This document shows, piece after piece, positions 20,243-62,301 of a stretch of DNA of 64,000 nucleotides. Source of the stretch: a virus; IMG/VR virus record IMGVR_UViG_3300045988_167206, positions 1-64,000 of that record; one strand, written 5' to 3'. The notes beneath the pieces were generated by a model. The model saw only the letters and a list, made by a program, of their open reading frames with translations, was not told the DNA's origin and made no database searches. Made by a program: the position numbers and the translations under genes. Position 1 is the first letter of the stretch; every line of letters begins with the position of its first letter.

Positions 20243-20330
20243 TTTTACAAAATCCTTGATTCACAGTTTTGCGTATAATTGTACTTGACGTTAAGTATCT
20301 GCAAGGCTGACAAATGGTGAATATTCTTGA

Positions 20331-20404: not shown

Positions 20405-20431
20405 TTTAAACAAAATAAAAGGAGAAAAGAA

Positions 20432-44588: not shown

Positions 44589-44724
44589 AATAATCAAATT
44601 TATCATTTGTACTATATGCTACGCAGGGATATTAAGAATAGCTAATGTTGAGATTGCAAGTGCGGAATATTGGATTGTAGTAATATTATTAATTATTGAA
44701 AGTGTAGCGTGGGGTACATATTAA
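44581..44724 (+). CDS. Possible small membrane peptide (47 aa)
   Basis: MNKIIKFIICTICYAGIL...YWIVVILLIIESVAWGTY. It overlaps both neighbours (ATGAATAA upstream, TAATG downstream). Confidence 0.3.
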   Translation: MNKIIKFIICTICYAGILRIANVEIASAEYWIVVILLIIESVAWGTY

Positions 44725-45461
44725 TGATTTGGGTTACAGGTGATACTCATGGTGATTGGGTCCATAGATTAAATATGGATACCTTCCCGGAACAAAAAGA
44801 AATGACAAAAGAAGATTATGTGATTATCTGTGGTGACTTCGGAATTTGGAGAGATAGTGCCCAACAAAGATGGTATTTAAAATGGCTTGAAGAAAGAAAT
44901 TTTACCACACTATTTATAGACGGAAATCATAGTAACTTTGATGTACTTGATTCTTACCCGGTATCTGAATGGCATGGTGGAAAAGTACATTTTATAAATC
45001 CATCAGTAATTCATCTTATGAGAGGGCAAATATTTAATATAGAAGAAAAAATATTTTTTACTTTTGGTGGTGCTGCCAGTTACGATATTCAAGATGGAAT
45101 TCTTGAGATTGATGATCCAAGAATTAAATCCTGGAGAAAAGATCCATATAAAATGTATAGAGTCAACCATGTATCATGGTGGAAACAAGAGATGCCTGAC
45201 GAAGAAGAAATGGCTGAAGGAAGAGAGAATCTTGAATTAGCAGGTAATAAAGTGGATTTTGTTGTTACTCATTGTGCTCCATCATCTACTCAGGCCATAT
45301 TGAGCGGTGGATTTTATGAATCAGATAAGCTTACTAATTATTTGGAAACGATAAAATCTGGCATTGATTATAAAAGATGGTTTTTCGGCCATTATCATAT
45401 TAATCAAGCTGTTAGTGACAAAGACATTGCTCTATTTGAACAAATTGTGAGGATTAATTAA
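44724..45461 (+). CDS. Calcineurin-like metallophosphoesterase
   Basis: Motifs GDTHGD, CGDFG, DGNHSN, THCAP and GHYH, in canonical order. Confidence 0.8.
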   Translation: MIWVTGDTHGDWVHRLNMDTFPEQKEMTKEDYVIICGDFGIWRDSAQQRWYLKWLEERNFTTLFIDGNHSNFDVLDSYPVSEWHGGKVHFINPSVIHLMRGQIFNIEEKIFFTFGGAASYDIQDGILEIDDPRIKSWRKDPYKMYRVNHVSWWKQEMPDEEEMAEGRENLELAGNKVDFVVTHCAPSSTQAILSGGFYESDKLTNYLETIKSGIDYKRWFFGHYHINQAVSDKDIALFEQIVRIN

Positions 45462-45613
45462 TTTATTATTAGTAAATAAGGAATTAAATAATCGAAAAGG
45501 ACACGCTTCATATAGACATAAAGGTGCTTATGGTCCAGCAGATAATTATTCAAAACATGATAAGCAGCAAGTTGAAGATGGAATACAGCAAATTAAAGAA
45601 TGGGAGAATGAAG

Positions 45614-46165
45614 ATGAAAGAAGAGAAAAAGAAGGTTCTGATTGTAATTGATGTGCAGAATGATTTTGTGACAGGAGTTCTTGGAACACCGGAAGCACAA
45701 GCTATTGTACCAAATGTGAAAAAGAAATTTGATGAATATAAGAATAATAAGAGCTATGTAATTCTTACAAAGGATACTCATCATTCAGATTACGCAGATA
45801 CTTCAGAGGGCAGAAAACTTCCTGAACATTGTATGTATGGTACTAAAGGTTGGGAAATTATTGATGAACTTGATTATAAAAATCTCGATAGTTTTATGGT
45901 GTGTTGTAAACCTACATTTGGACTTGATAACTGGGATTGGGAAGAAATATTTAATACTACAGATGATTCTTTATTAGATATTGAAATTATTGGAGTATGC
46001 ACAGATATCTGTGTGATTACAAATGCTCTTCTTATTAAAACTTATTATCCAGAGGCAAAAATCACAGTGGATGCATCATGTTGCGCAGGATCAACACTGG
46101 AAAAGCATAAAGCGGCTCTTGATGTGATGGAAAGTTGCCAGATTAATGTAACCAATAGAAATTAA
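45614..46165 (+). CDS. Isochorismatase-family cysteine hydrolase (nicotinamidase PncA-like)
   Basis: VIDVQNDFV (catalytic Asp), a conserved Lys region, and the catalytic Cys in GVCTDICV. The start was moved to ATG 45614 (RBS tGGGAGaatgaag). Confidence 0.7.
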   Translation: MKEEKKKVLIVIDVQNDFVTGVLGTPEAQAIVPNVKKKFDEYKNNKSYVILTKDTHHSDYADTSEGRKLPEHCMYGTKGWEIIDELDYKNLDSFMVCCKPTFGLDNWDWEEIFNTTDDSLLDIEIIGVCTDICVITNALLIKTYYPEAKITVDASCCAGSTLEKHKAALDVMESCQINVTNRN

Positions 46166-46173
46166 ATTAAACA

Positions 46174-46797
46174 ATGGAGGAAATTAAAATGATGAATAAT
46201 TTTATGAATGGAATGTTTGGGAAAATTGGTAGTGGAATGTGTAAGTTATCCATGAGCGGTAATATTGCAGTAAAAACTTCCAATGGATATAAGAGCTACA
46301 ATGTTAAATCCGGAAAGCTCACAAACTGTGGCAATTTCGTATTTCCTGGAGTAGATGAAAACTTCTTCTTCGTCATTCCAACAAATAAGGTAGCTAAAGG
46401 AGACATCATCCTTGTAAATGGCAAGCCAAAATGTGTTATTGAGGCAGACAAAACCAAGATCACTGTAATTAATTATGAAGATTCAACAATTGAAACAATT
46501 TTACCAGAACGTCACGTATTTATGGGTAATACATATTTTTATGGAAAAATTGTTTCAATGTTTGGAAGTAATTTTGGCAAAGACAAAAATAGTGCAAATA
46601 AAATTTTTAAATATATGATGATGACTCAGATGATGGGCGGATCTTCTACATCTGGCATTGGGATAGATAGTAATCCAATGAATGCCATGATGCCATTTAT
46701 GATGATGAATGGCAATATTGGAGACATGTTTGATGGCATGCTTGATTTTGATATGGATGACACAGATGAAGAGGTTGATTTAGAGGAGGATGAATAA
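46174..46797 (+). CDS. Met-rich hypothetical protein with acidic tail
   Basis: 207-aa ORF with runs such as MMMTQMMGG and MMPFMMMNG. C-terminus DMDDTDEEVDLEEDE. Confidence 0.5.
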   Translation: MEEIKMMNNFMNGMFGKIGSGMCKLSMSGNIAVKTSNGYKSYNVKSGKLTNCGNFVFPGVDENFFFVIPTNKVAKGDIILVNGKPKCVIEADKTKITVINYEDSTIETILPERHVFMGNTYFYGKIVSMFGSNFGKDKNSANKIFKYMMMTQMMGGSSTSGIGIDSNPMNAMMPFMMMNGNIGDMFDGMLDFDMDDTDEEVDLEEDE

Positions 46798-46799
46798 TT

Positions 46800-47696
46800 A
46801 TGGGATGTGGAAATTGGGATACTAAAAGTTTTGTATCTTATGCATCATCAAGAGGATTTGATACTGATACGCGAGGAGTAATCAGAGGAGATTATTCTAA
46901 TCAGGAAATGTTTAAAGCTAAAAAACTTGATCCTGCGCTTGATCCTAAAAATGCAATTAGAGAATGCTGCGATAGTGAAGAACATCCGAACACCTTGCCG
47001 GTTATTCTTGCTTTAGATGTTACTGGATCAATGGGGCAAACAGCAGTAGAAATTGCAAAAAAGCTTAATGAAATTATGACAAAATTATATGAACAAATCA
47101 ATGATGTGGAATTTATGATTATGGGTATTGGTGATCTGGCATATGATGTCTATCCAATTCAGGCCTCACAGTTTGAATCGGATATTAGAATTGCAGAGCA
47201 GCTTGACAAAATTTATTTTGAATTTGGTGGCGGTAGCAATCCATATGAATCCTATACCGCAGCTTGGTATTTTGCTTCTCGTCATACAGAACTCGATTGT
47301 TGGAATAGAGGCAAAAAAGGTGTAATTATCACGATTGGAGATGAACAGCTTAATCCATATCTTCCAATATCAGGCGAATATAATGGTTTGTCTACTGCTA
47401 CAGGTGATAATCTTCAATCAAATGTCGAGACAAAAGATTTATATCTGGAAGTTGCTAAAAAATTTGATGTTTATCATATTAATGTGGACCATCGTAATTA
47501 TTATAGTACTGAACAAGAAAATATTAAAAAGTCTTTTATGGAATATCTTGATGCAGATCATTTTAGAACAATTAATAACATTGATGACATTACAGATGAA
47601 ATTGTAAAAATTGTTACAGCTGCAAATAACGAACAAACAGTAGTACTACCGATAATTTCTGCAAAAACCGATGAATCGGGAGATATTGTTTGGTAA
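46800..47696 (+). CDS. vWA-domain protein (second one in the window)
   Basis: MIDAS-type motif LALDVTGSMG, with later ITIGDEQ. Confidence 0.6.
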   Translation: MGCGNWDTKSFVSYASSRGFDTDTRGVIRGDYSNQEMFKAKKLDPALDPKNAIRECCDSEEHPNTLPVILALDVTGSMGQTAVEIAKKLNEIMTKLYEQINDVEFMIMGIGDLAYDVYPIQASQFESDIRIAEQLDKIYFEFGGGSNPYESYTAAWYFASRHTELDCWNRGKKGVIITIGDEQLNPYLPISGEYNGLSTATGDNLQSNVETKDLYLEVAKKFDVYHINVDHRNYYSTEQENIKKSFMEYLDADHFRTINNIDDITDEIVKIVTAANNEQTVVLPIISAKTDESGDIVW

Positions 47697-47705
47697 GGAG
47701 AAAAT

Positions 47706-48809
47706 ATGAAAGATATAAAAATTGTCATTGGAGCAAATTTCGGTGACGAGGGAAAGGGTAAACTTACAGATTATTATACTAAAGATAAAAATAATTGTAT
47801 TGTTGTTTGCTCAAATGGAGGAGCGCAGAGAGGACATACAGTATTGAAACCTAATGGGATACGTCATGTTTTTCATCATTTTGGTTCCGGGACATTAAAT
47901 GGAGCCGATACATATTTACCAGAGGATTTTATTTTAAATCCTCTGGTGTTTAAAGAAGAATGGGATGAATTAAAAAAAATGGGATTTGAACCGCATGTAT
48001 ATGCCAATAAAAAGTATATGATTACAAATCCTCTTGATATGATGGCTAATCAAATAATTGAAAGAAATCGCAAAGATAACAAACATGGTAGCTGCGGAAT
48101 GGGAATCTATAATACCATTCAAAGACATAAAAATGACATTATAGATTATTTGGATTCCTGGGCATATTATATGAATATGTTCAGAAGGATGAAAATTACT
48201 TTATCAGAAGAAGAAGCTGAATTATTCGACCAATATAAAAAAGGAAAAGAGATTCGTCTTCATTATTTTAAAGATTTGGATTTTATGATGGAACATATAA
48301 AAATTGTTCAGGATGATCAAATATTAAATAAATATGACACAATAGTATTCGAAAATGGCCAAGGATTGCTTCTCGATCAGAATAATATGGAATATTATCC
48401 ACATCTTACTCCGTCAAATACTGGTATAAAAAATCCTTCCAGGATTATAAAAGCAGTAAATTGGGACGCTGAAATTAACGTAGAGGCATGCTATGTAACC
48501 CGTTCATATATGACAAGACATGGAGCAGGTGCATTCCCAACTGAATGTAATAAGACAGAGATAAATACAGATATAACAGACTTAACTAATGTACCTAATC
48601 CACATCAGGACGTTTTAAGATATGGAACACTTGATGTAAATGAATTATACGATAGATGCCAAAGGGATGTAAAAGTCGCTGGCATTCCATGTCATAAAGT
48701 GTTAGCTATAACTCAAGTAAATGCATGTAAATCAATTATTCCATATATTTATAAAAAATTCAAAAAAAATAATTGGAATATAAAATTTTTTCATTTGGAG
48801 GAGAATTAA
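47706..48809 (+). CDS. Short adenylosuccinate-synthetase-family enzyme (PurA/PurZ-like)
   Basis: P-loop GDEGKGK, GGAQRGHT (versus PurA GGHNAGHT), GSCGMGI (versus TTGRGIGP), FENGQGLLLD..YPHLTPSNT (versus FEGAQGTLLD..YPYVTSSNT), TRHGAGAFPTE. Only 367 aa versus about 430 for cellular PurA, and the Asp-binding GATTGRxRR segment is not recognisable. Confidence 0.8.
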   Translation: MKDIKIVIGANFGDEGKGKLTDYYTKDKNNCIVVCSNGGAQRGHTVLKPNGIRHVFHHFGSGTLNGADTYLPEDFILNPLVFKEEWDELKKMGFEPHVYANKKYMITNPLDMMANQIIERNRKDNKHGSCGMGIYNTIQRHKNDIIDYLDSWAYYMNMFRRMKITLSEEEAELFDQYKKGKEIRLHYFKDLDFMMEHIKIVQDDQILNKYDTIVFENGQGLLLDQNNMEYYPHLTPSNTGIKNPSRIIKAVNWDAEINVEACYVTRSYMTRHGAGAFPTECNKTEINTDITDLTNVPNPHQDVLRYGTLDVNELYDRCQRDVKVAGIPCHKVLAITQVNACKSIIPYIYKKFKKNNWNIKFFHLEEN

Positions 48810-49063
48810 TGTATTTACATGATAGACTTATGGATTTATCTCAAAAAACAGAATGTATGGATGTAATATTACATAATGAGTTTAAAAATGATTATCCTTA
48901 TCGAGAAAATTTGCATGATGTAACATTTTTGATTGGCGAACTTATAGATATTTTACAACAATCAACTCTTACATATGATGATCTCATTCAATTAGAACAA
49001 CAATATAACGAAAGGTATGACAGCAAAATTAAACAAGAAAAAGATAATGAAATTATTTGGTAA
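48809..49063 (+). CDS. Hypothetical protein
   Basis: The ATG overlaps the upstream stop (TAATG). RBS tGGAGGAGaat. Confidence 0.4.
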   Translation: MYLHDRLMDLSQKTECMDVILHNEFKNDYPYRENLHDVTFLIGELIDILQQSTLTYDDLIQLEQQYNERYDSKIKQEKDNEIIW

Positions 49064-49075
49064 AGGAGTCTACAT

Positions 49076-49894
49076 ATGATTAAGATTAATAATAATGTAT
49101 TTAAGCCAGAATATTTTCCGGATGGAACGATGAAATTAAAACTTGATGGAGATATAAATTATTGGATTTATTGGCTTTATGATTCAGAAGATGAATTACT
49201 CCAGCTTTATTACATTATGAATTATATTGATGAAAATCATGCACAATCAAGTACATCATTATTTATGCCATATATTCCAAATGCTAGATTTGACCGAACT
49301 AAAAATTATTATGAAATTTTTACCTTAAAATATTTCGCTAAATTTATTAATTATCTTCATTTTGATGAAGTGATAGTATTTGATCCTCATTCACATGTAT
49401 CCGAAGCGTTAATTGATAGGCTTTGCATTCATAACCCTTTAAATTCAATTATTAAAACCATTAAAAAGATTACAAATACATCAAAAGAGTTACTTTTATT
49501 TTTTCCAGATGAAGGAAGCACAAAAAGATATGAGAATGTAATTAAAACATATTCAGAATCTCCATATACTTTCGGTATTAAAAACAGGGATTGGGTCACA
49601 GGAGAGATTAAAGGATTATCTGTAAACGGACAAGTTGATCAGATCAAAGATAGAGACGTACTTATTATTGATGATATTTGCAGCAAAGGTGGCACGTTTT
49701 ATCACAGTGCTAAAAAACTTAAAGAACTTGGCGCGAATAAGATTTATCTTTATGTAAGTCATTGTGAAAATACAATTTATGCTGGAGAATTGCTTAAAGA
49801 TAACGGATTGATTGAAAAAATTTTCACTACAGATAGCATTTTAACAGATCTTACAAGTCCTAAAATTGAATTAGTAGAGGAGTGGAGAAAATAA
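49076..49894 (+). CDS. Ribose-phosphate pyrophosphokinase (Prs)-family protein
   Basis: FPDGT.. (Prs FSDGE), MPYIPNARFDR (Prs IPYFGYARQDR), VFDPHS (DLHA), FPDEGS (SPDIGG), and the PRPP-loop LIIDDICSKGGT. 272 aa. Confidence 0.75.
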   Translation: MIKINNNVFKPEYFPDGTMKLKLDGDINYWIYWLYDSEDELLQLYYIMNYIDENHAQSSTSLFMPYIPNARFDRTKNYYEIFTLKYFAKFINYLHFDEVIVFDPHSHVSEALIDRLCIHNPLNSIIKTIKKITNTSKELLLFFPDEGSTKRYENVIKTYSESPYTFGIKNRDWVTGEIKGLSVNGQVDQIKDRDVLIIDDICSKGGTFYHSAKKLKELGANKIYLYVSHCENTIYAGELLKDNGLIEKIFTTDSILTDLTSPKIELVEEWRK

Positions 49895-50262
49895 TGAAAC
49901 CAATTATTAGTCCTTGGACGATTTATTTTGCCAGTAGAGTAGATTCTTTGAAAATTCTTGCTGGGTGTATTTTAGTATGTTGCATAATTGCGATATGCAT
50001 AGCATTCATTGAGGGCGATATAGACTACGGATCAGTATTAACTCATAGAAGTTTCATGAAGAAATGTGTAATAATATCTATTATCAGTGCGGTTGTTTTG
50101 GTAATCACGCCAAGTACAGAAACAGTTTATACAATGGTAGTAGCAAATGAAATTACACCAGACAATATTCAAGCATTTGGTAAAACTGGTAAGAATGTAG
50201 TTGATTACATTACAGATCAGATTGACAAAATTATAAATAAAGATGACGAAAAGGAGAAGTAG
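49894..50262 (+). CDS. Small membrane protein (2 TM)
   Basis: TAATG-coupled to the Prs-like gene. Hydrophobic helices ILAGCILVCCIIAICIAFI and VIISIISAVVLVI. Confidence 0.45.
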   Translation: MKPIISPWTIYFASRVDSLKILAGCILVCCIIAICIAFIEGDIDYGSVLTHRSFMKKCVIISIISAVVLVITPSTETVYTMVVANEITPDNIQAFGKTGKNVVDYITDQIDKIINKDDEKEK

Positions 50263-50265
50263 AAT

Positions 50266-51732
50266 ATGTACGATACATTAGCGATTTTATTATGCGACAC
50301 TTATAAAACATGCCATAACCGAATGTTTCCTAATAAACTTACAAAATTAGTATCTTATTGGACTCCAAGAAGATCTATGTTGAAATATCAAGATCATATG
50401 GTATTCTTTGGACTTCAAGCATTTATTAAAAAGTTTCTGATCGAAGATTTTAATAAAAATTTCTTTGATTTACCAGAAAGTGCAGTAATGTATGAATACT
50501 CCTACACAATGAATACGCAGTTAAAACCAGGAGATTACGATATTGGGCCAATCATTGAATTACATAGATTAGGATTTCTTCCTATTCAGATTCGTGCATT
50601 ACCGGAAGGAACACTGGTTCCAATGGGAGTTCCTTGTATTGAAATCTTTAATACAAAACCAGAATTTGCATGGGTAGTCCAGTGGATTGAGTGTATTCTG
50701 CAGGTGGAACTTTGGAAACCATGTTGTCATGCGACAATCGGGCATATGTATAGGGAATCTGCAAATTATTGGTATAAAAGAACAGTTGATAATGTAAAAC
50801 CATCAATGGCCGCCTCTGACTTTGGAATGAGAGGAATGTCTTGTATGGAAGAAGCAGAAAGATGCTCCGCTGCTTGGTTGCTTTCGTTTGATAAAACATC
50901 CACAATTCCAGCAATCGATTATATTTATAATTATTATTCTACGAACTGTCAAAAACTCAATATTGGACTTGGAGCAGTAAGTACAGAACATTCTGTAATG
51001 GCTTCAAATTTTGCAGTAGACGGTGACGAAATTACATTTGTAAAACGATTACTTACAGAATTATATCCAAATACTTCATTTAGTATGGTTTCTGATACCT
51101 ATGATTATTGGAATATGATCGATAATATTCTTCCGGCCTGCAAAGAAGAAATTATGAATCACAATGGTAAATTGCTTGTAAGACCAGATTCTGGAAATAT
51201 GGTTGATATCTCAGTAAAGACAGTAAAAAAACTTTGGGATATATTTGGTGGGACTATTAATAGTAAAGGTTATAAAGTACTCGATCCACATATTGGTATT
51301 ATTTATGGCGATGGTTGTAGCTTATACAATGTGAACGAGATTTGGAGTTTACTCGCAGATGAAAGATTTGCAGCAAATAATATTGTATTTGGTGTCGGAG
51401 CCTTTTGTTTCTCGGCAATTGTTGAGGGTGACGGTCATATGGCAGTAGTTACCAGAGATACATTTGGAATTGCAATGAAAGCCACATATGGTGTCGTGGA
51501 TGAAAAACCTATTATGATTTATAAAGATCCCAAAACAGATACTTCTCATCTTAAAAAATCCCATAAAGGTTGTTGCAAAATTTATCGTGATCAGAGCGGA
51601 GAATTAATCTGTGAAGATGGTTTTGATAAGCCACAGCATGGAGAGTTGCATATTGTATATTGCAATGGCGATATTATTGAAGAAGAAACATTTGAGGATA
51701 TTCGTAGAAGATTAAATACTCAGGAGAATTAA
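50266..51732 (+). CDS. Nicotinamide phosphoribosyltransferase (Nampt/NadV)-family protein
   Basis: N-terminal LLCDTYKTCH..SYWTPRR (NadV: L.TDSYK.SH...Y.E.R), FGMRGMS..EEAE, VRPDSGN, IIYGDG. 488 aa. Confidence 0.85.
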   Translation: MYDTLAILLCDTYKTCHNRMFPNKLTKLVSYWTPRRSMLKYQDHMVFFGLQAFIKKFLIEDFNKNFFDLPESAVMYEYSYTMNTQLKPGDYDIGPIIELHRLGFLPIQIRALPEGTLVPMGVPCIEIFNTKPEFAWVVQWIECILQVELWKPCCHATIGHMYRESANYWYKRTVDNVKPSMAASDFGMRGMSCMEEAERCSAAWLLSFDKTSTIPAIDYIYNYYSTNCQKLNIGLGAVSTEHSVMASNFAVDGDEITFVKRLLTELYPNTSFSMVSDTYDYWNMIDNILPACKEEIMNHNGKLLVRPDSGNMVDISVKTVKKLWDIFGGTINSKGYKVLDPHIGIIYGDGCSLYNVNEIWSLLADERFAANNIVFGVGAFCFSAIVEGDGHMAVVTRDTFGIAMKATYGVVDEKPIMIYKDPKTDTSHLKKSHKGCCKIYRDQSGELICEDGFDKPQHGELHIVYCNGDIIEEETFEDIRRRLNTQEN

Positions 51733-51734
51733 AT

Positions 51735-52172
51735 ATGAATAAATCAATGATTTATAAAAGAAATGTATATATGAGCAGAGACTCAAAAGATGTTGAAGAA
51801 ATGTTCAGTGAAATTTTAAATAATTATGAAGAAAAAGAAGAAACGATTAAGTATCTTCGGGAAGAAAATAAAAGAATTAAAGATGAAAAATATAAGGATT
51901 CTGAACTAACTTCTATGAAAAGAGAACTTGAAGGTGTAAAAGGAGACTTATATAGAGGATTTCCGATTTCAATAAAAGAAAAAAAAGCTATCGAAGAATG
52001 GCGATTAAAACATGAAGCTGAGGCTCACGGAAGAAAAACACTTGAACAAAGGTTATCGGCACACGGAGCAATTGGCGGCAGTTACACTTATGTTTTCACG
52101 CCGACAAGCATTGGTGTTGTTGGCGAGTTTAAGTGTAGTTGTGGCGAATCATTTACATTTCAAGATATTTAA
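51735..52172 (+). CDS. Hypothetical protein (coiled-coil N-terminus, Cys pair at C-terminus)
   Basis: 145-aa ORF tightly packed between the Nampt-like and nucleotidyltransferase genes. Confidence 0.5.
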   Translation: MNKSMIYKRNVYMSRDSKDVEEMFSEILNNYEEKEETIKYLREENKRIKDEKYKDSELTSMKRELEGVKGDLYRGFPISIKEKKAIEEWRLKHEAEAHGRKTLEQRLSAHGAIGGSYTYVFTPTSIGVVGEFKCSCGESFTFQDI

Positions 52173-52184
52173 TAAGGGGTATTT

Positions 52185-52952
52185 ATGACATTAAAAGAGA
52201 TTAAAGAAAAAATAAGGACAGATCCGGCATACGGGTTTCTTCGTACAGATCCTCATCTTGGAGATAATATCTGTCTTCTTTATTTAAGCGGTAGTTATGC
52301 TTACGGAACAAATGTTGAAGATAGTGATATTGATCTTCGTGGGGTTACTTTAAATAGCAAAGAAGAAATTCTTCTTGGACAGGATTTTAGAAGTGTTACA
52401 GATGGAAGTACCGATACAACAATTTATTCATTTAAAAGAATGGTCAAAATGCTTTGTAGTAATACTCCAACTGCTATTGAGATATTTGGTCTTAAACCGG
52501 AACATATTTTATACGCTAATTCAATAGGAAAAGAATTGTTGACTAAGCAAAATATGTTTCTTACAAAAAGAGTCGCTTCTGCTTTCAAAGGATATATTCA
52601 GGCTAGTTTAAAATTGCTTGAATCAGAAAAATGCCTAAATGATAAAACTATGATGTCCAAATATATGGTTCATCCATTTCGATTGTATTTTATGATTATT
52701 GATATTTTAACTGATCGGACAATAACGACATATCGTGAAGAAGAACACGAAATACTTATGGATATTCGTAATGGAAAATGGCTTGAAAATAATAAACCTT
52801 CTAATGATTATATGAATTTTATAAGAAATTATAACAGAGTGATTCCATTTCTTCTTAAAGAAAAAAGTAATCTTCCAGAAGATTTAAATTTGTGTAACAT
52901 TGATGATTATGTGATAGCAGTACATGAAAAAATTGTCAAAGGAGAAATTTAA
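52185..52952 (+). CDS. Pol-beta-superfamily nucleotidyltransferase (RlaP/YcgL-like)
   Basis: GS-x(10)-DxD signature YLSGSYAYGTNVEDSDIDLRG. Confidence 0.65.
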   Translation: MTLKEIKEKIRTDPAYGFLRTDPHLGDNICLLYLSGSYAYGTNVEDSDIDLRGVTLNSKEEILLGQDFRSVTDGSTDTTIYSFKRMVKMLCSNTPTAIEIFGLKPEHILYANSIGKELLTKQNMFLTKRVASAFKGYIQASLKLLESEKCLNDKTMMSKYMVHPFRLYFMIIDILTDRTITTYREEEHEILMDIRNGKWLENNKPSNDYMNFIRNYNRVIPFLLKEKSNLPEDLNLCNIDDYVIAVHEKIVKGEI

Positions 52953-53045
52953 TGATTAAAGTAATCAATGGAAGCATTTTAAATGCTAAAACAGATTTTA
53001 TTATTATTACAAGGAAAACTCAGTACCAAAAGAGGAGGAATAAAT

Positions 53046-53402
53046 ATGGATATTATTTATTTTGAGCTTAATAACTGGTTTTGTGGTAGAGATTATCCAA
53101 ATGATGAGCCATTTATTTCATGGATGAGTAATGATTTACAATTAAAATTCGATAACGAAGATTGGATTATTGAAAATAAATTATGTGTAGTAAAAACATT
53201 TGTAGACATGTCTTGTAATTTCTGTATTACTGCCACAAAGGAATGGGTAGAAGAGAATTGTCCTAAATTACTTACAGAATATAATGAGTTTTTAAGATAT
53301 CCTGATAAATATGGAGATACTTATGGAAAATTTGGAACATTATTTTTGGAATATTGTGTAGAAAATATTGGGTTGGAAGATAGAGAAGAAGATGATATTT
53401 AA
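53046..53402 (+). CDS. Hypothetical protein
   Basis: ATG at 53046 after RBS AGAGGAGGAataaat. Confidence 0.5.
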   Translation: MDIIYFELNNWFCGRDYPNDEPFISWMSNDLQLKFDNEDWIIENKLCVVKTFVDMSCNFCITATKEWVEENCPKLLTEYNEFLRYPDKYGDTYGKFGTLFLEYCVENIGLEDREEDDI

Positions 53403-53418
53403 TGAAAGGATATAAGAT

Positions 53419-54174
53419 ATGAATTATTATTTTGATGCTAAAAAAGTAAAAGATGATTGCGTACAGTGGATTAGAGATTATTTTACAAAGAATGGACTAG
53501 ATTGCAATGCAATTGTTGGAATTTCTGGAGGAAAAGATTCTTCTGTTGTGGCTGCACTTTGCGCAGAAGCACTTGGAAAAGATAGGGTTATTGGTATTCT
53601 AATGCCACAGGGAATACAGTCTGATATTGGATATGCTCAAGAACTTTGTGCCGAACTTGATATTGAGAATTATACTATTAATATTGAATCTGCTTATAAA
53701 GCAATTAGAAATCAAGTAAAAGAGACTCTTAATGGGCATTGGAGCCAGCAGAGTGCCATTAATTTACCGGCAAGATTAAGAATGAGCATATTATATGCTT
53801 ATGCACAGACATTAAATGGAAGAGTGGCAAATACATGTAATCTTAGTGAAGATTGGGTAGGATATGCAACACGATACGGAGACTCTGCAGGAGATTTTAG
53901 TCCGCTTGCAAACTTTACAGTTGAAGAAGTAAAAGCTATTGGTAGAGAATTAGGTCTGAATGAGCTTTTAATTGAAAAAGTGCCAACAGATGGTCTTTGC
54001 GGTAAAACAGACGAAGATAACCTTGGTTTTACATATGCAGTTCTTGATAGATATATTAGAACTGGTAAAATTGACGATTTGGAAACCAAGAAGAAAATTG
54101 ATTATCTTCATGAAAAAAATGCGTTTAAGTTAAGATCAATGCCTACATTCAAATATCCACCTTGTCCATTTTAA
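53419..54174 (+). CDS. nadE: NH3-dependent NAD+ synthetase
   Basis: PP-loop GISGGKDSSVVAAL, with downstream ..NLSE..GY.T.YGD and DE..LG..Y..LD motifs. 251 aa. Confidence 0.85.
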   Translation: MNYYFDAKKVKDDCVQWIRDYFTKNGLDCNAIVGISGGKDSSVVAALCAEALGKDRVIGILMPQGIQSDIGYAQELCAELDIENYTINIESAYKAIRNQVKETLNGHWSQQSAINLPARLRMSILYAYAQTLNGRVANTCNLSEDWVGYATRYGDSAGDFSPLANFTVEEVKAIGRELGLNELLIEKVPTDGLCGKTDEDNLGFTYAVLDRYIRTGKIDDLETKKKIDYLHEKNAFKLRSMPTFKYPPCPF

Positions 54175-54186
54175 GGAGAATTAGAT

Positions 54187-54312
54187 ATGAAGCATGATAA
54201 TATTACAAAATGCATAGCATGGATTACAATCTGTATAGCAGTACTCGCCGGCTTATATTGGACAAAATCTCCGTCATGCTTATGGGCGTTCTGGATCCTA
54301 TTACTTATATGA
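54187..54312 (+). CDS. Possible small membrane peptide (41 aa)
   Basis: RBS AAGGAGAattagat. Sequence MKHDNITKCIAWITICIAVLAGLYW...WAFWILLLI. Confidence 0.3.
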   Translation: MKHDNITKCIAWITICIAVLAGLYWTKSPSCLWAFWILLLI

Positions 54313-54320
54313 GGTGTAAA

Positions 54321-54671
54321 ATGAAAAATAAAGATCAAATTAAATATACGATTAACCATAGAAAAGCTTTTCGAAAAGTAGAAAAAGAACTTCTTGGACA
54401 CAACACAGTAAGAAGTTTGTTTCATGACTTAGATAAAGTATTTTTGTACATGGTGTTCGACCATGAGAAAGTACATAATTGGCATAGATATCATAGTAGA
54501 CATCATCTAAAAGCCAGAACTCATGATGATTATGTGCAGATGGCAATTGATTGGGAATGTGCAAGGTTTACTAAACCAGATAAGCCATTAAATGCGAGAG
54601 AAACATTAAAGAAGATTCACCCAGAAGTCACAGATGAAATGCTTCCTGTATTAGAAGAATTGGGACTATGA
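54321..54671 (+). CDS. Small His-rich protein with HD-like motif (DUF5662-like, tentative)
   Basis: The pattern H..(x)..FHDLDK...HRYHSRHH...IDWECA is reminiscent of small HD-like phage proteins. The start was moved to ATG 54321 (RBS tGAGGTGtaaa). Confidence 0.4.
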   Translation: MKNKDQIKYTINHRKAFRKVEKELLGHNTVRSLFHDLDKVFLYMVFDHEKVHNWHRYHSRHHLKARTHDDYVQMAIDWECARFTKPDKPLNARETLKKIHPEVTDEMLPVLEELGL

Positions 54672-54806
54672 ATGAATAAAGAAGATATTGTAGTATTATT
54701 TATTATATTAATTTTTATTGGATTCTTTTGTATGTATTTAATGGCGGCACGTATTTGGAAAGATATAGATAAAGAGATAGAAGAAGACAAACAAAGGAGA
54801 ATACAT

Positions 54807-55325
54807 ATGGCAAAACGAGTAGCAAAGTTCGAAAAAGTATCAAAACAGCAGTTTATTCAGGACTGGCAGCATGAATTTATGGGATCTGAAGAATGGGCTG
54901 GATTTATCTATGATCGAATTAAATTACCAGCAAGAGCAACAAAATTTTCAGCAGGATATGATTTCTTTGCACCAATGGACTTTACACTGAACCCGGGAGA
55001 AACTGTCAAGATCCCTACCGGTATCCGTTGTGGAATCAATACAGACTGGGTATTAATGATTTATCCTCGAAGCGGCCTTGGCTTTAAATATAGAGAAATG
55101 CTTGCAAATACAGTTGGAGTAGTAGATAGCGATTATTTTTATTCAGACAATGAAGGCCATATTTTTATCAAAGTTGTAAATGCCGGAGATAAAACACTTC
55201 ATATTGAAAGCGGGAATGGTTTTGCACAGGGGATTTTTACTGAATATGGTATCACAGAAGATGATCATGTTGAAGCAGAACGAAACGGTGGATTCGGAAG
55301 TACAGATAAAAAGGAACTTAAATAA
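54807..55325 (+). CDS. dut: dUTP diphosphatase (trimeric dUTPase)
   Basis: Motifs AGYDFFAP, IYPRSG, GVVDSDY and RNGGFGSTD. Strong RBS AAAGGAGAatacat before ATG 54807. The ORF also continues in frame upstream to 54672 (see findings). Confidence 0.85.
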   Translation: MAKRVAKFEKVSKQQFIQDWQHEFMGSEEWAGFIYDRIKLPARATKFSAGYDFFAPMDFTLNPGETVKIPTGIRCGINTDWVLMIYPRSGLGFKYREMLANTVGVVDSDYFYSDNEGHIFIKVVNAGDKTLHIESGNGFAQGIFTEYGITEDDHVEAERNGGFGSTDKKELK

Positions 55326-55741: not shown

Positions 55742-55770
55742 TTTCTAAAAAAATTATGAAAGGATTATTT

Positions 55771-56004
55771 ATGAATATTAGAATTAATGATACAAATGCG
55801 GCCAGAAAGCTTGTTTCTATTGCCAGCAACAAAAAATATGCAGACTACGATATTGATTGCATCTGCGGACGTTATATCATTGATATGAAGTCAATTATGG
55901 GAATGCTTTCATTTGCGCTTCCCACGGATGTAGATATTGTGATCCGGGCAGATGGGGATATAGAAAAAGAGTTTTACGAACATGTTAAACGTATAGCGTC
56001 ATAG
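55771..56004 (+). CDS. HPr-fold protein lacking His15 (Crh-like)
   Basis: It aligns with HPr: DTNAARKLV.. (HPr GIHARPATLLV; His15 replaced by Asn), and the Ser46 region is retained as IIDMKSIMGMLSF (HPr VNLKSIMGVMSL). Confidence 0.45.
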   Translation: MNIRINDTNAARKLVSIASNKKYADYDIDCICGRYIIDMKSIMGMLSFALPTDVDIVIRADGDIEKEFYEHVKRIAS

Positions 56005-56096: not shown

Positions 56097-57269
56097 ATGG
56101 GAAAAGATTTAAAAGGTAAAGAACTTGGAAAGGGGATTACACAAAGAAAAGATGGTAGATATCAAGCAAGATTTACTAATCGTTTTGGAAAAAGACAGAC
56201 GATATATGGTAAAACACTTAAAGAAATTAAAAATGCATTACATGAAGAAACTATAAAAGATTTACGAGAAGAAAATGTAAAAAATATTAAATTAACAGTA
56301 GATGAATGGTTTGAAATATGGTCCAAAACATATAAGGAAACTACAATTAAAAAAACTACATTTGCTAAAAATAAAAGAAATTATCAACATCAAATTAAAC
56401 CAGTTATAGGGAATAAAAAAGTCTCCGAAGTAACATCATTTGATATTGTTTCTTTAACCAGTAACATGGCAAAAAAATATACAAAAGGTTTTATAAGAGA
56501 TGTACATGGTATTTTATATGATATGTTCGAACAAGCGTACATAAATGAGCTATGCAAAAAAAATCCTGTTTATGGAACTAAATTTGGTGGAAAACCAAAT
56601 AGAAAAATACAAGCATTAAATATTGAAGATCAAAGTGAATTTTTAAAATCAAGTAAAGATAATTTTTATTATAATGCGTTTGTTGTACAATTAAATACCG
56701 GTTTAAGACTTGGAGAAATCATAGGTTTATGTGTTGAAGATATTGATTTAAAAAATAATATGCTTCATGTTAGACATAATATGATTATGGTTAGGAAAGA
56801 TGGAGATATTCCATCTTATTTAGAAATAAGTACACCAAAAACGAATGCTGGAATTAGAGATGTTCCAATAAATAAAGCATGTAGAAAAGCTTTGATCAAT
56901 CAACTTGAAATGCGATCTAATGTTATTTTTCCACATAAATTTCATCAATTAGTATTTTTTAGTAAAGATAATTTTTTACCAATAAGCCGATCAACATATT
57001 ATCGAAACATTAATAGTGTTGTTAAGAAAATTAATATTAAAAGAGCAAAAAATAATCAACCTCTTATAAAACAGTTTGGATCACATACTTTTAGACATAC
57101 ATTTGCAACGAGATGTTTTGAAGCTGGTATTCCACCTAAAACAGTACAGGTTTTACTAGGACATGCCAGCATACAAATGACATTAGATATTTATACATCT
57201 GTAATGCAAGATAAACGGGTTGAAGACTTAAAAAAATTTGACACTTTGATGGACACGTTATGTTTATAA
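56097..57269 (+). CDS. int: Tyrosine integrase (phage-type site-specific recombinase)
   Basis: N-terminal arm-binding-type region (KDGRYQARFTNRFGKRQTIYGKT), Arg I TGLRLGE, HTFRHTFAT (HxxR), GHASIQMTLDIYTSV (His..Tyr). Confidence 0.9.
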   Translation: MGKDLKGKELGKGITQRKDGRYQARFTNRFGKRQTIYGKTLKEIKNALHEETIKDLREENVKNIKLTVDEWFEIWSKTYKETTIKKTTFAKNKRNYQHQIKPVIGNKKVSEVTSFDIVSLTSNMAKKYTKGFIRDVHGILYDMFEQAYINELCKKNPVYGTKFGGKPNRKIQALNIEDQSEFLKSSKDNFYYNAFVVQLNTGLRLGEIIGLCVEDIDLKNNMLHVRHNMIMVRKDGDIPSYLEISTPKTNAGIRDVPINKACRKALINQLEMRSNVIFPHKFHQLVFFSKDNFLPISRSTYYRNINSVVKKINIKRAKNNQPLIKQFGSHTFRHTFATRCFEAGIPPKTVQVLLGHASIQMTLDIYTSVMQDKRVEDLKKFDTLMDTLCL

Positions 57270-57329: not shown

Positions 57330-57656
57330 AGAGTTTCCACCTGTATGTATTACACCGGTATCCATCCGCTTACAGGGGAGAAGGTTTACATTCCGCGTGA
57401 CCCGCATGAAAAAGCCATCCAGCGTGCGCTGATGCAGTATAAGAACCCGGCAAACAGAAGCCTTGTACTGGAGGGGCTCAAGATCGCAGGACGCATGGAT
57501 CTGGTCGGTTTCGGCCCGAAATGTCTGCTCCGCCCGGAGAGAGACCGAAGGAAAGAATCCGGCAGAAATCCATCAGGAGGAGACCGCAGGAAGCCACAGA
57601 ACCAGGGACGTAAGCCCGCAAAGAAAACGATCCGCAATACGCATAAGAAAAAATAA
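57330..57656 (+). pseudogene. 3'-terminal fragment of a host-type ygiQ (UPF0313 radical-SAM) gene
   Basis: The translation ..MYYTGIHPLTGEKVYIPRDPHEKAIQRALMQYKNPANRSLVLEGLKIAGRMDLVGFGPKCLLRP.. followed by a basic tail matches the conserved C-terminus of YgiQ-family proteins. The frame opens only at 57330, there is no radical-SAM core, and the segment is conspicuously GC-richer than the surroundings. Confidence 0.6.
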
Positions 57657-57678
57657 AATGGTGTCAAAATGGTGTCAA
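57656..57678 (+). repeat. Direct repeat copy 2
   Basis: aaatggtgtcaaaatggtgtcaa overlaps the stop of the ygiQ fragment. Confidence 0.8.
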
Positions 57679-57724
57679 AAAAAACTATAAATTACGTAAT
57701 GAGATAACTTTAAATACAATAAAT

Positions 57725-57758
57725 AAAAAGCAGAGGCTCTTTGTAACCTCTGCTTTTT
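57725..57758. terminator. Bidirectional rho-independent terminator
   Basis: AAAAA-GCAGAGG-ctctttgtaa-CCTCTGC-TTTTT. The A-run and T-run flank a GC-rich stem. Confidence 0.75.
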
Positions 57759-57888
57759 ATTGCAATACATCTTTTGGTTTTTGTCTGACCATTTCAGAAT
57801 ACATTTTTATTATACATCAAGTATAAGTGCATTGCAATTTCTAAATTTGTCGAGATTATTCGAAATAAGCATACTTGATGTTAAAAGT

Positions 57889-57921
57889 AAAAAAAGGGAT
57901 ATCACTTAATTGTGATATCCC
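57889..57921 (-). terminator. Rho-independent terminator of the minus-strand lysis operon
   Basis: GGGATATCAC-ttaatt-GTGATATCCC is preceded on the + strand by AAAAAAA, which is a U-tract on the - strand. It lies 134 nt beyond the holin stop. Confidence 0.7.
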
Positions 57922-58054
57922 AAATTTATAGAATAATAATTTAATGCAATGCGTATTTTGCTCTAAAATCGATCTCGTGTCAACTCCCTAAGAAGTTTAC
58001 ACTGAACTATCTAGAAACGATTCTAAGCCATACTACACGCCGTAGAAGCCGCTA

Positions 58055-58321
58055 TTATTCATCCTTTTTTGGCTCGGTATATTCAAGTGCCTGAGTACTA
58101 TCTGTAATACCTGCAGTAGTAGGGTCAGTAACGACTCCTAAGATTGCGAGGATCATAAATACTGCGTTTACAACATCAAGCAGCTTATTTCCGAGATCTC
58201 CAAGGTCAATCTGAATTCCAAATACAGCAGCTACAACCTGAATGAGTAGTAGGACAGCAGGAATTAGAGCAATCCAGAATGCTTTGTTTTTTACACGTAC
58301 TAACCAGTTAATGTTTCTCAT
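58055..58321 (-). CDS. Holin (phi-LC3-type)
   Basis: 88 aa: MRNINWLVRVKNKAFWIALIPAVLLLIQVVAAVF...AILGVVTDPTTAG..EPKKDE. It has two TM helices and a charged C-terminus, and lies adjacent to the endolysin. Confidence 0.8.
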   Translation of the reverse strand: MRNINWLVRVKNKAFWIALIPAVLLLIQVVAAVFGIQIDLGDLGNKLLDVVNAVFMILAILGVVTDPTTAGITDSTQALEYTEPKKDE

Positions 58322-58322
58322 A

Positions 58323-58925
58323 TTAAATTCCTTCTTTCTGTGAGTAAATACTTCCTTTTGGATAGCGAATTTCTAATTCTTCGATCTCTGGAAGCAATTT
58401 TTCATGATAAATATCATCTCCACCGGCAGCCTCATAAAGTTTTCCCATTTCCATAAATGTTTTTAGACCATCCGGGGTAATATATCCTTGAGAGGTAAAA
58501 ATTTTATGCATTTGCCATAATGAACTGCGAAATGATGCAACAGTACGATCATTTTGTATGTCGATGTACGAACTTACCATTTGAGCTAAATCTGATATTT
58601 GATTGCTTAAGCCTTTTTGATTTTGCTTTAATTCATTTCTAATCTGAATACTTTGTTCGTGATAACCCTGTTGCTTCTTATAAAGATTATCTTCTCGGTT
58701 ATCTATTTCTTGAGTAAGTTTTTTTACTGAATCTTCAAGATTTAAAATTTTTTGTTCTTGAGCTTTTTTATAAAGACTGGATTTTGTTTCAAATCCAAAT
58801 ATCTCCATCAACTTTTTCCCAATTGTATATAATGCAATAACAATAAGTGCTATGTACAAAAGGGATATGAGAGCATTAAACTCTCCAATTTCATGAATTT
58901 CTTTTATAGCATTGATTCCATCCAT
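58323..58925 (-). CDS. Membrane-anchored coiled-coil protein in the lysis cassette
   Basis: One TM helix (FNALISLLYIALIVIALYTI) followed by coiled coil. It sits between the endolysin and the holin. Function unknown. Confidence 0.45.
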   Translation of the reverse strand: MDGINAIKEIHEIGEFNALISLLYIALIVIALYTIGKKLMEIFGFETKSSLYKKAQEQKILNLEDSVKKLTQEIDNREDNLYKKQQGYHEQSIQIRNELKQNQKGLSNQISDLAQMVSSYIDIQNDRTVASFRSSLWQMHKIFTSQGYITPDGLKTFMEMGKLYEAAGGDDIYHEKLLPEIEELEIRYPKGSIYSQKEGI

Positions 58926-58944
58926 TCTATTCTCCCTTCGTTAT

Positions 58945-60642
58945 TTATTGTTTTGCAATATATTTTTTAGCAGCGTATCCATAGTACTTTCCTGCAATTC
59001 GGATATAATACCATTCGCTATTATCTTTAGCTTTTACTGTATCACATACATCTACAAGATTTCCTTTTTTAAGCATAGGATAGCTTTTGAGTTGCGTATT
59101 CTCAGTTCCTGCACCAGTACGAACATTTAAAGAATCAGCTGTTATCTTTCCGACAAATTTAGGTGTTTTTGATGGTGCTTTATTCGTAGTAGTATTTTTA
59201 TTCTGTGCAGCGATCACAGCATCAAGTTTTGCAATAGTGTTCTTTCCTGCAATGCCATCGATTTCAAGCTTATATTTAGTCTGGAATGATTTTACAGCAG
59301 ATCTGGTTGCATTACCATAAGAACCATCTACAGCTAATTTATATCCAACCTTATTAAGCTTAGTCTGAAGTGTCTTTACATCAGATCCTGTATCGCCATA
59401 CTGAAGATAATTTTTAGTGTTTGTAGGAGTAATAACAGAAGTGGTTACACCAGAAGTTCCAGATAAAATAGATGTGACAAGAGAATAGTTAGGAGTACAG
59501 AATTTAGTTCCTGGAAGCTGCGAATTATAATAAGATTTCTCGCATACACCGCCACCGTTGGCAACGATCCCAGACGCGCCGGAAGTATTCCCCTCGATAG
59601 TCCAAAATTTGTCTCCTTGAACTCTTGTAACCAAACCGGTATGAGCAAATGTTCCGTTACGATAGAAAATTACAATGTCACCGACTTTAGGATTTGCATT
59701 TTTAGTAAATAGTTCTCCAAGAGTAGGACAATATACATAAGGCCAGTGCTTTAATAATTTTTTGGCTGTTTCAAGTCCAAATACCTTCATGAATAACCAT
59801 GAAATGAAGCAAGCACACCATGGTTGTCCTTGATAAGCTGGATATACATCTCTCCAGTACTTTGTTATATTGTTGTATCCTGCATTAGCTGACTTACTAT
59901 CTAACTGAGCATTTGTTTTCTTTTCAAGATAACCGATCTCATCTGTGGCAATTTTAATCATAGCATTAATTGCCTGATCTTTTGTTACTTTATTTGCTGT
60001 GGTATTATTTGAGGAAGAATTGGTAGAATTACCAAGTAGTTTAGAATTATAACAGATATCTCCGTCAAAATTTTGATTGAATCCAGTTAATCTTGCGCGA
60101 CTAGAATACTGGAAAATATCACATGCAATTGGGGCTTCATGATAAGAGTAGTCAGATTTGTATTGAGCCAACCAAAATACATATCCTTTAGATTTCACAC
60201 GATCAGAATACATATTGTAATAATAATCGGTATTACAATAATATCCAGGTATTAATTTAGCAGCTTTTATTGTATCACAAAAAGCAATTGTAAAATCATT
60301 ACATTCTTTTGATCCAAGAGTAACCCCTTTCGCCTTTGCTTTTTTCACAGTGTCATATTCAAAATCATAAAAGATAATTGGAATATTATAAGGTTTACAA
60401 ATATCCATACATAATTTTGCTTCATTTTTAGCTTGAGTTGCATTTAATGCATATGTAAACCAATAAGCTCCAATAATTTTGATTCCTGTAGATTGACATG
60501 CTTTTGCATATTGATCAAACTTGGGATCTTTTGTTGTGCCATAGCCGGCACGTAAAATAATATAGTTAATTCCCGCAGATTTGAGTTTATTAAAATCGAG
60601 GTTTCCTTGCCAGTAACTAATATCAATTAATTTTGTGGACAT
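58945..60642 (-). CDS. Multidomain endolysin: GH25 muramidase + CHAP + PG_binding_1 + SH3-like
   Basis: GH25 opening IDISYWQG..ILRAGYG; CHAP Cys/His (GQPWCACFISW ... FAHTGLV ... EGN); PG-binding repeat GDTGSDVKTLQTKLN..DGSYGNATRSAV..FQ; C-terminal SH3-like LNVRTGAGT. The start was set at the ATG (60642) behind RBS GGAGGG. Confidence 0.9.
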   Translation of the reverse strand: MSTKLIDISYWQGNLDFNKLKSAGINYIILRAGYGTTKDPKFDQYAKACQSTGIKIIGAYWFTYALNATQAKNEAKLCMDICKPYNIPIIFYDFEYDTVKKAKAKGVTLGSKECNDFTIAFCDTIKAAKLIPGYYCNTDYYYNMYSDRVKSKGYVFWLAQYKSDYSYHEAPIACDIFQYSSRARLTGFNQNFDGDICYNSKLLGNSTNSSSNNTTANKVTKDQAINAMIKIATDEIGYLEKKTNAQLDSKSANAGYNNITKYWRDVYPAYQGQPWCACFISWLFMKVFGLETAKKLLKHWPYVYCPTLGELFTKNANPKVGDIVIFYRNGTFAHTGLVTRVQGDKFWTIEGNTSGASGIVANGGGVCEKSYYNSQLPGTKFCTPNYSLVTSILSGTSGVTTSVITPTNTKNYLQYGDTGSDVKTLQTKLNKVGYKLAVDGSYGNATRSAVKSFQTKYKLEIDGIAGKNTIAKLDAVIAAQNKNTTTNKAPSKTPKFVGKITADSLNVRTGAGTENTQLKSYPMLKKGNLVDVCDTVKAKDNSEWYYIRIAGKYYGYAAKKYIAKQ

Positions 60643-60744
60643 ATAAATCCCTCCTTGTATTTTTAGAACGCGAATATATTTCACGATATAAGAAAAAATA
60701 GAAATGTAAGATTAGAATATTGTATATAGATTATGTGTCAATGT

Positions 60745-62267: not shown

Positions 62268-62301
62268 GTAAATAGCTCCTTTCTTTATTAATAAACACCG
62301 C

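Follow-up and report, generated by a model that had tools for sequence, protein, structure and literature searches.

How might a phage rebuild NAD+ if it encodes the enzymes that open and close the deamidated route, and neither PncB nor NadD, which carry its middle steps? The question is raised by a stretch of 64,000 nucleotides of viral DNA (positions 1 to 64,000 of IMG/VR virus record IMGVR_UViG_3300045988_167206), here called the window, in which genes for a nicotinamidase, a Prs-family protein, a Nampt-family protein and an NAD+ synthetase (NadE) are found close together (Table 1). NAD+ depletion is among the commonest anti-phage strategies of bacteria, and of the phage answers known, NAD+ reconstitution pathway 1 (NARP1) is the most common. 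An earlier reading of the letters alone (the original prediction) had described the region as a dense NAD+-centred metabolic island. Profile searches of the open reading frames (ORFs) recovered all of the enzyme families that it named at 44724-54174 on the + strand, the vWA protein on a weak match alone, and upheld its view that the NAD+-regeneration module goes beyond a two-gene NARP, four genes being conserved.

These four genes belong to recognisable families and retain their catalytic residues, and the Nampt-family protein has a remodelled substrate pocket which co-occurs strictly with NadE and nicotinamidase genes. We assign a probability of about 0.6 to the reading that they form the core of a deamidated version of NARP1, in which four enzymes would rebuild NAD+ via nicotinate, the substrates, products and counter-defence role being predicted from sequence.

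An Adps/Namat pair of the NARP1 type

In NARP1 the 'Prs' was shown to be Adps, a pyrophosphokinase of ADP-ribose (ADPR), and the 'Nampt' to be Namat, a nicotinamide ADPR-transferase, and in Pfam terms the system is defined by PF14572 beside PF18127/PF04095 (Osterman et al. 2024, 10.1101/2024.02.11.579819). The Adps-like protein of the window matched PF14572 sub-threshold at 1e-5. Against the Adps of SPbetaL1, which is biochemically characterised, its identity is 36-38% (136-144 bits), the best cellular Prs in the PDB scoring 64 bits. Both phage proteins lie far under the equivalog cut-offs of the NCBIfam Prs models; with TIGR01251 (cut-off 113) the window protein reaches 101 bits and SPbetaL1 Adps 106, so that both fail. 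The catalytic lysine K162 of the SPbetaL1 enzyme corresponds to K169 in the window and is invariant in the 5 Adps sequences.

Between the Adps-like gene and the Namat-like gene, 372 bp further downstream, there is a single small ORF. The closest PDB match to the product of the second gene is SPbetaL1 Namat (9W5X/9W5W; E-value=9e-112), with human Nampt at 1e-53, and the catalytic residues H242 (human H247), R306, D308, F186 and Y13 are kept. The Prs-like/Nampt-like pair is accordingly named here as a predicted NARP1-type Adps/Namat pair. The families given in the original prediction stand; its counting of the two proteins as additions beyond NARP does not, the pair itself being of the NARP1 type.

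The pyridine pocket of the Namat variant

Alignment columns were sought that separate two classes of Namat, canonical and remodelled, and all four of the following pocket positions differ between them. Human Nampt H191 is replaced by S184 in the window (S, A or G in relatives), G217 by K210 (K, R or N), D219, the equivalent of SPbetaL1 D215, by S212 (S or A), and A244 by S239 (nearly always S). The D215A substitution in SPbetaL1 Namat lowers NAD+ synthesis from nicotinamide 8.1-fold (PMC12774641). In human Nampt, D219S is tabulated as switching substrate affinity (Khan et al. 2006, as given in a review table in PMC4919578), and H191R, G217R and A244M are tabulated as blocking inhibitor binding (PMC4919578); the latter three positions are taken to line the nicotinamide tunnel.

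A profile-profile alignment (80% probability, E-value=1.5e-5) places S212 at the Ser that is invariant in the 'TSN' motif of true phage nicotinate phosphoribosyltransferases (NAPRTs), namely gp277 of Bacillus phage G and PncB of Sinorhizobium phage Phosso. By alignment, the acidic residue predicted to read the amide is lost, a NAPRT-like Ser stands in its place, and a basic residue is gained two positions upstream. With the NAPRT models TIGR01513 and NF009131 the window protein scores about 20 bits against cut-offs of about 300.

The clade to which the window belongs also possesses a 10 amino acid insertion (residues 384-393) in the adenine-clamp helix region. Of the SCH aromatics of SPbetaL1 Namat, F392 corresponds to F380 here and Y396 to a Val, and the equivalent of R40, in the SCL, is Met; the SCL has been described as variable (PMC12774641). 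Relatives of the Phass-1 type retain the clamp aromatics 'YTYQY'. Several protein clusters of the Namat variant comprise hundreds to thousands of members in public metagenomes.

Nicotinamidase and NadE

The first and last core genes fit the proposed deamidated chemistry. The top PDB match of the PncA-like protein is the pyrazinamidase/nicotinamidase of P. horikoshii (1ILW), and D14, K100 and C134 together with D55, H57 and H73 are invariant in nine aligned sequences including 1ILW; we take the former three to be the catalytic triad (Asp-Lys-Cys) and the latter three the metal site (Asp-His-His) of nicotinamidases. The protein lies below the NCBIfam PncA equivalog (31 bits vs. a cut-off of 174). 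NadE passes TIGR00552 (181 bits vs. 63.65), contains the P-loop 'SGGKDS' and is of the short type, with PDB matches to 2E18, 3FIU and 3P52.

Pocket state and gene context

Some 220 loci were collected from IMG/VR scans queried with Namat of the window, of SPbetaL1 and of Phass-1, from a single scan across bacterial and archaeal genomes, and from GenBank phage records. An alignment-based IMG/VR scan gave the closest clade only; the canonical controls derive from the SPbetaL1 and Phass-1 scans and from seven reference phages (SPbetaL1, Staphylococcus G1, Mycobacterium Whirlwind, Felixounavirus warpig, Vibrio ICP1, Listeria SH3-3 and the T4-like Aeromonas phage Aes012). Gene context was scored for 123 unique full-length Namat sequences, each flanked by 4 kb or more of DNA on both sides.

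Where the pocket is remodelled (n=101), a NadE gene was nearby in every case, and a nicotinamidase gene and an Adps gene in 100 of the 101 each. Where it has the canonical form H-G-(D/E)-A (n=22), Adps was again present throughout (22/22), NadE and nicotinamidase never (0/22 for both). All seven reference phages possess the HGDA pocket, with no NadE or nicotinamidase within 6 kb. In 50,697 GenBank phage records, Namat/Nampt homologs occur in 2,045, NadE-like proteins in 48 and isochorismatases of this type in 14. Since the latter two are so rare in phages, and the four core genes are found together in about 100 unique related loci, their clustering is not due to chance.

In many lineages the four genes make up a compact operon of about 4 kb; the offsets from the Namat start are -1.4 kb for the nicotinamidase, -0.8 kb for Adps and +1.9 kb for NadE. 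In Phass-1, a distant gut phage with a Namat that is only 32% identical to that of the window and has the pocket GRAS, the order is nicotinamidase, 'Prs', 'Nampt', a 139 amino acid ORF and NadE. The Phass-1 record (L069, OQ749652.1) belongs to the 'code 15' clade of Caudoviricetes, and the NadE of its five-gene operon (8861-9784) is annotated in the deposit as 'hypothetical protein'.

The remodelled Namat sequences fall into two clades, each with 100% bootstrap support. A first neighbour-joining tree had suggested two independent Asp-to-Ser/Ala switches; bootstrapping gave no resolution and these are not claimed.

Proposed route

The route would begin with NAD+ being split into ADPR plus nicotinamide by a host NADase. 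The PncA-like nicotinamidase would convert nicotinamide to nicotinate, and the Adps-like kinase would use ATP to turn ADPR into ADPR pyrophosphate (ADPR-PP). From ADPR-PP and nicotinate the Namat variant would form nicotinic acid adenine dinucleotide (NaAD) and pyrophosphate, and NadE would then produce NAD+ from NaAD, ATP and NH3. Adps and the Namat variant would in this way stand in for PncB and NadD of the Preiss-Handler route, which would account for the absence of genes for the latter two. From the homology to NARP1 we infer an anti-defence role.

As the original prediction had stated, the window possesses no canonical nicotinamide mononucleotide (NMN) adenylyltransferase (NMNAT), NadD or PncB: tblastn found no NMNAT/NadD homolog in the 64 kb, and PncB was likewise missing, the NCBIfam models agreeing. 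The suggestion that the route may employ non-orthologous enzymes appears correct, as Adps and the Namat variant would take the places of PncB and NadD. The further claim, that the amidated and deamidated branches are both covered, found no support; the loss of the residue that recognises nicotinamide, together with the NAPRT-like pocket, points to a single complete deamidated route.

Several points weigh against this reading. The clamp insertion and the Val at the Y396 position mean that a preference for ADPR-PP over PRPP (phosphoribosyl pyrophosphate) is not assured in the window's clade. Some members have Ala, not Ser, at the D219-equivalent position, and human D219A and SPbetaL1 D215A, as assayed with nicotinamide, lower activity. 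The experimental precedent for a substrate switch is one human Nampt mutant, known via a review table. Of 100 bootstrap replicates, 56 join the two remodelled clades as one monophyletic group, and the association of pocket and context may go back to one ancient event and have been maintained since; if the origin was single, the association has been kept through divergence to about 32-40% identity and many rearrangements. Within the short NadE type, the Francisella enzyme is an NMN synthetase. The removal of nicotinamide would relieve product inhibition of sirtuin-type NADases, which leaves the selective rationale unclear. Lastly, of the 98 unique remodelled loci on which all accessory gene counts are based (6 kb or more of flank on either side), 20 (about 20%) encode an NMNAT of the NadM type, which fits a route based on PRPP.

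Such a route would be a Preiss-Handler pathway in which the Prs-like protein makes PRPP, the Namat variant makes nicotinate mononucleotide (NaMN), host NadD or the NadM of the relatives makes NaAD and NadE acts last, ADPR not being reused. The evidence for a nicotinate pocket fits it equally well. SPbetaL1 Namat uses PRPP when ADPR-PP is not supplied, the adenine clamp is altered in the window's clade, a classical version is encoded by jumbo phages, and in one relative (L215, 624-1187) the NadM-type gene lies directly upstream of the Namat variant. On the other side, the Prs-like protein is much nearer to characterised Adps than to any cellular Prs and fails the Prs cut-offs just as Adps does, SPbetaL1 Adps yielded no product in a PRPP synthetase assay, NMNAT and NadD are absent from the window and from about 80% of the related loci, and the clamp aromatics are kept in Phass-1-type members. 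We regard the PRPP route as unlikely for the window; the NadM-type genes suggest that some relatives may run it as well. Less probable still, and in our view a poor candidate, is a canonical nicotinamide-using NARP1 accompanied by two independent helpers, the nicotinamidase and NadE, that boost the first and last steps of the host's Preiss-Handler pathway. It corresponds to the two-branch picture of the original prediction. Both branches are represented at the level of annotation, and most Firmicutes salvage nicotinamide through PncA-PncB-NadD-NadE. This leaves unexplained why the amide-reading Asp and three further pocket residues are changed in every Namat linked to NadE and nicotinamidase and in none elsewhere, and the D215A substitution alone costs SPbetaL1 Namat 8-fold in activity with nicotinamide.

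The chemistry might also be as proposed and the role be general metabolic support, supplying NAD+ to enzymes of the phage that consume it. An NAD+-dependent DNA ligase is among the phage's genes (8386-10392), and phage replication hence uses up NAD+. Ligase releases NMN and not ADPR, and a pathway starting from ADPR is sensible only if NAD+ has been cut at the nicotinamide-ribose bond. Gut jumbo phages with NAD+ synthesis genes do possess NAD+-consuming enzymes as well (PMC11662467). For canonical NARP1, activity against Thoeris, DSR1/2, SIR2-HerA and SEFIR has been shown, a Macro-domain phosphatase extends NARP1 against aRES defence, and ADP-ribose-processing domains are abundant in the related loci (Macro-like in 70 of 98, NADAR in 38), all of which makes a purely supportive role doubtful and would favour a link to NADase activity.

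Neighbouring and accessory genes

The ORFs of 44.7-55.3 kb are tightly packed and lie on the + strand throughout, as do all genes between 42 and 57 kb. No terminator-like sites were found on the + strand of 44.7-55.3 kb, and the promoter/terminator scan was uninformative, its counts not exceeding the shuffled expectation. The features of the window are listed in Table 1.

Table 1. Features of the 64,000 nucleotide window, with the share of the 98 related loci that possess a homolog
Feature	Position	Strand	Matches and remarks	Related loci
NAD+-dependent DNA ligase	8386-10392		phrog_3869, 6e-172; upstream of module	
P-type cation-transporting ATPase, full-length	13658-16282		Pfam E1-E2_ATPase and Cation_ATPase_N/C; upstream	
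tRNAs Gln, Leu, Met	20.3-22.2 kb		upstream	
DNA polymerase	31170-34679		upstream of module	
Calcineurin-like metallophosphoesterase	44724-45461	+	Metallophos 1e-10; phrog_1649 7e-46	28/98
PncA-like nicotinamidase (core gene 1)	45608-46165	+	Pfam Isochorismatase, 2e-22	
Inserted trio	46174-48809	+	207 amino acid protein with Met/Asp-rich tail, vWA-like and PurA/PurZ-family proteins	~22/98
vWA-like protein	46800-47696	+	weak VWA_2 match alone (15.6 bits, E 0.025); phrog_2971	
PurA-like protein	47706-48809	+	Adenylsucc_synt 5e-36; phrog_1211 3e-75	
96 amino acid ORF upstream of Adps	48773-49063	+	no family match	7/98
Adps-like ADP-ribose pyrophosphokinase, Prs-family homolog (core gene 2)	49076-49894	+		
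126 amino acid membrane protein between Adps and Namat	49882-50262	+	phrog_3878 1e-16	29/98
Namat variant (core gene 3)	50266-51732	+	NAPRTase and NAMPT_N; NF006629 452 bits vs. cut-off 405	
145 amino acid coiled-coil protein downstream of Namat	51735-52172	+	no significant family match; homologs 44-69% identical	34/98
Pol-beta/RlaP-type nucleotidyltransferase	52185-52952	+	RlaP 3e-12; phrog_388 3e-38; variable positions	23/98
139 amino acid ORF	52983-53402	+	no family match	0/98
NH3-dependent NAD+ synthetase NadE (core gene 4)	53419-54174	+	Pfam NAD_synthase, 7e-54	
153 amino acid ORF before dUTPase	54210-54671		motif resembling HD domain; no family match	
dUTPase	54672-55325		N-terminal extension of ~80 amino acids, apparently membrane-spanning	
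HPr-like protein	55756-56004		Pfam PTS-HPr, 1.4e-7; 41-64% identity in relatives; downstream of module	
Tyrosine integrase, Tn916-type	56097-57269		downstream of module	

The metallophosphoesterase, the nucleotidyltransferase, and the PurA-like and vWA-like proteins had been counted as parts of the island; each occurs in about 20-30% of the related loci, and they are not regarded as parts of the module. For the metallophosphoesterase, whose ATG at 44724 matches the N-termini of its homologs, a role as an ADPR or cyclic ADPR enzyme is unsupported, phrog_1649 being a generic phage family. The idea that the Pol-beta nucleotidyltransferase might stand in for NMNAT is likewise unsupported, as the protein is of the RlaP type and not CTP_transf_like. 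In the window it forms, with the 145 and 139 amino acid ORFs, an insertion between Namat and NadE.

The trio sits between the nicotinamidase and Adps genes of the window. Its three genes stay together in other gut phages. In MT835469, where they are 75%, 65% and 58% identical to those of the window, the 12 kb around them contain no NARP genes, and in two related loci (L116, L143) the trio is located elsewhere; it is considered a separate module. Assignment of the PurA-like gene to PurZ, and with it to a Z-genome, was rejected: the protein scores 39 bits vs. 300 with NF038379 and 104 bits vs. 402 with the NCBIfam PurA model, no PDB match named PurZ was found at an E-value of 1e-3, and the neighbours are the vWA-like gene and an uncharacterised gene, not DatZ/MazZ.

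Many relatives carry a Macro-like ORF (18 bits with Pfam Macro over the full profile length) or a NADAR ORF (97 bits) between Namat and NadE, examples being L091 (9461-9922) and L100 (9919-10332), in line with the link between NARP1 and Macro domains that has been published. In the window tblastn detected no Macro homolog in the 64 kb (best E-value 0.06), and searches of the window for NADAR, HAD-like and RyR-type genes found none. The NadM-type NMNAT, which displays the motif GRFQTFHKGH and scores 44 bits with CTP_transf_like, follows NadE in many close relatives (L084, 13541-14089; L138, 12243-12806). In the window the site that it has in close relatives is occupied by the 153 amino acid ORF.

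A HAD-like domain is found in 39 of the 98 loci. In two protein clusters, P0007 (646 amino acids, 2406 member sequences) and P0036 (628 amino acids), the Namat variant is extended at its C-terminus by such a domain of about 140-155 amino acids, with a DxDxT/V motif and weak Pfam matches (E ~0.07); in Phass-1 the domain is encoded just downstream of the Namat gene (L069, 9784-10203). A possible role is that of a phosphatase feeding or driving the pathway.

The phage and its relatives

The window, with a G+C content of about 32%, is part of a large phage genome. Besides the upstream genes of Table 1 it specifies, likewise upstream of the module, a DnaB-like helicase, a RecD-like helicase and ribonucleotide reductase. 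ORFs of 872-874 amino acids with an N-terminal sequence similar to that of the P-type ATPase occur near the NAD+ module in other gut-phage lineages (L149, 10643-13267; L187, 2827-5445). The listed TTG start of an AAA-ATPase ORF (20327-21535) overlaps the gene for tRNA-Gln (20331-20404), which means that its true start must be further downstream. At 57345-64000 the integrase is followed by a basic ORF of 103 amino acids and then by a convergent group on the - strand specifying a holin-like protein, an endolysin (579 amino acids) and tail fibres.

Its closest relatives are a prophage in Ruminococcus sp. AM36-2AA and IMG/VR contigs 100-180 kb long, of which many come from the human gut; further relatives occur in metagenome-assembled Lachnospiraceae genomes. 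The presence of an integrase in a large phage genome suggests a temperate lifestyle, in agreement with the Ruminococcus prophage. No close relative was found among GenBank phages, where megablast matched over the inserted trio only (74% identity). Remodelled Namat genes are also present on contigs binned to a Methanomassiliicoccaceae archaeon and to a Treponema (L217 and L220), reflecting either a wide host range or binning artefacts.

Comparison with known systems

The literature describes NARP1, NARP2, NARP1-AP, RyDEP in NARP1 loci, NARP3 and the classical clusters of jumbo phages. A nicotinate-dependent, NadE-linked Adps/Namat pathway was not described in the searchable literature, which took in the Osterman 2024 main text and the Osterman 2026 supplements and left most subscription journals outside its coverage. 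We rate at a little above even the proposition that the module is a fourth kind of NAD+ reconstitution in human-gut phages, with a new reaction (ADPR-PP and nicotinate to NaAD) carried out by a Namat lineage whose pocket has converged on that of NAPRT, this step being bracketed by nicotinamidase and NadE. The locus suggests that NARP1 has a second form, distinct in its chemistry, which appears dominant in large phages of human-gut Clostridia. It would explain the recurring and seemingly incomplete gene sets of gut phages in which Nampt, Prs, PncA and NadE are found without PncB, NadD or NMNAT. If the reading is true, a new enzyme specificity is predicted and four pocket residues are named for it; this would bear on how the nicotinate-rich gut shapes phage counter-defence, and may serve the enzymatic synthesis of NaAD and NAD+.

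With NARP1 the module shares the adjacent Adps-type Prs homolog and Namat-type Nampt homolog with the same Pfam signature, the Adps Lys and the Namat His and Arg, and the nearest solved structure is that of SPbetaL1 Namat. It differs in that Ser (Ala in some relatives) replaces the amide-reading Asp and three more pocket residues are changed, all NARP1 references tested being HGDA; in its constant company of nicotinamidase and NadE (100/101 and 101/101 loci), which canonical NARP1 never has; in the predicted product of the Namat variant, which is NaAD rather than NAD+; and, in the window's clade, in the 10 amino acid clamp-helix insertion.

NARP1-AP consists of NARP1 and a Macro-domain ADPR-1''-phosphate phosphatase, Adpp (Osterman et al. 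2026, 10.64898/2026.01.28.702374). It provides a precedent for NARP1 operons with added enzymes that widen the substrate range, and the Macro-like ORF found between Namat and NadE in most relatives recalls Adpp. The window possesses no Macro gene, and its extension would act on the pyridine half of the molecule, whereas that of NARP1-AP acts on the ADPR half. NARP2 (Nampt and NMNAT, as in phage KVP40) and NARP3 (PnuC and NadR; PMC13464706) are likewise phage-encoded means of rebuilding NAD+ against NAD+-depleting immunity; the window lacks NMNAT, PnuC and NadR, and its pocket differs from the Nampt type (HGDA in the T4-like Aes012).

The jumbo phages Bacillus phage G and Sinorhizobium phage Phosso encode classical PncA-PncB-NadD-NadE sets, which shows the deamidated route to be in use among phages; the classical set has likewise been reported for gut 'NAD-jumbo phages' (PMC11662467). 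These Preiss-Handler clusters and the module of the window have in common a nicotinamidase at the beginning, NadE at the end, and passage through nicotinate and NaAD. The middle steps set them apart, being those of true PncB and NadD in the former and presumably of Adps and the Namat variant in the latter, by which ADPR would be recycled directly. The human Nampt mutant D219S, finally, shows the same Asp-to-Ser change at the amide-reading position; it was engineered as a single mutant, in an enzyme that uses PRPP, whereas the phage proteins present a natural remodelling at four positions with a new Lys or Arg.

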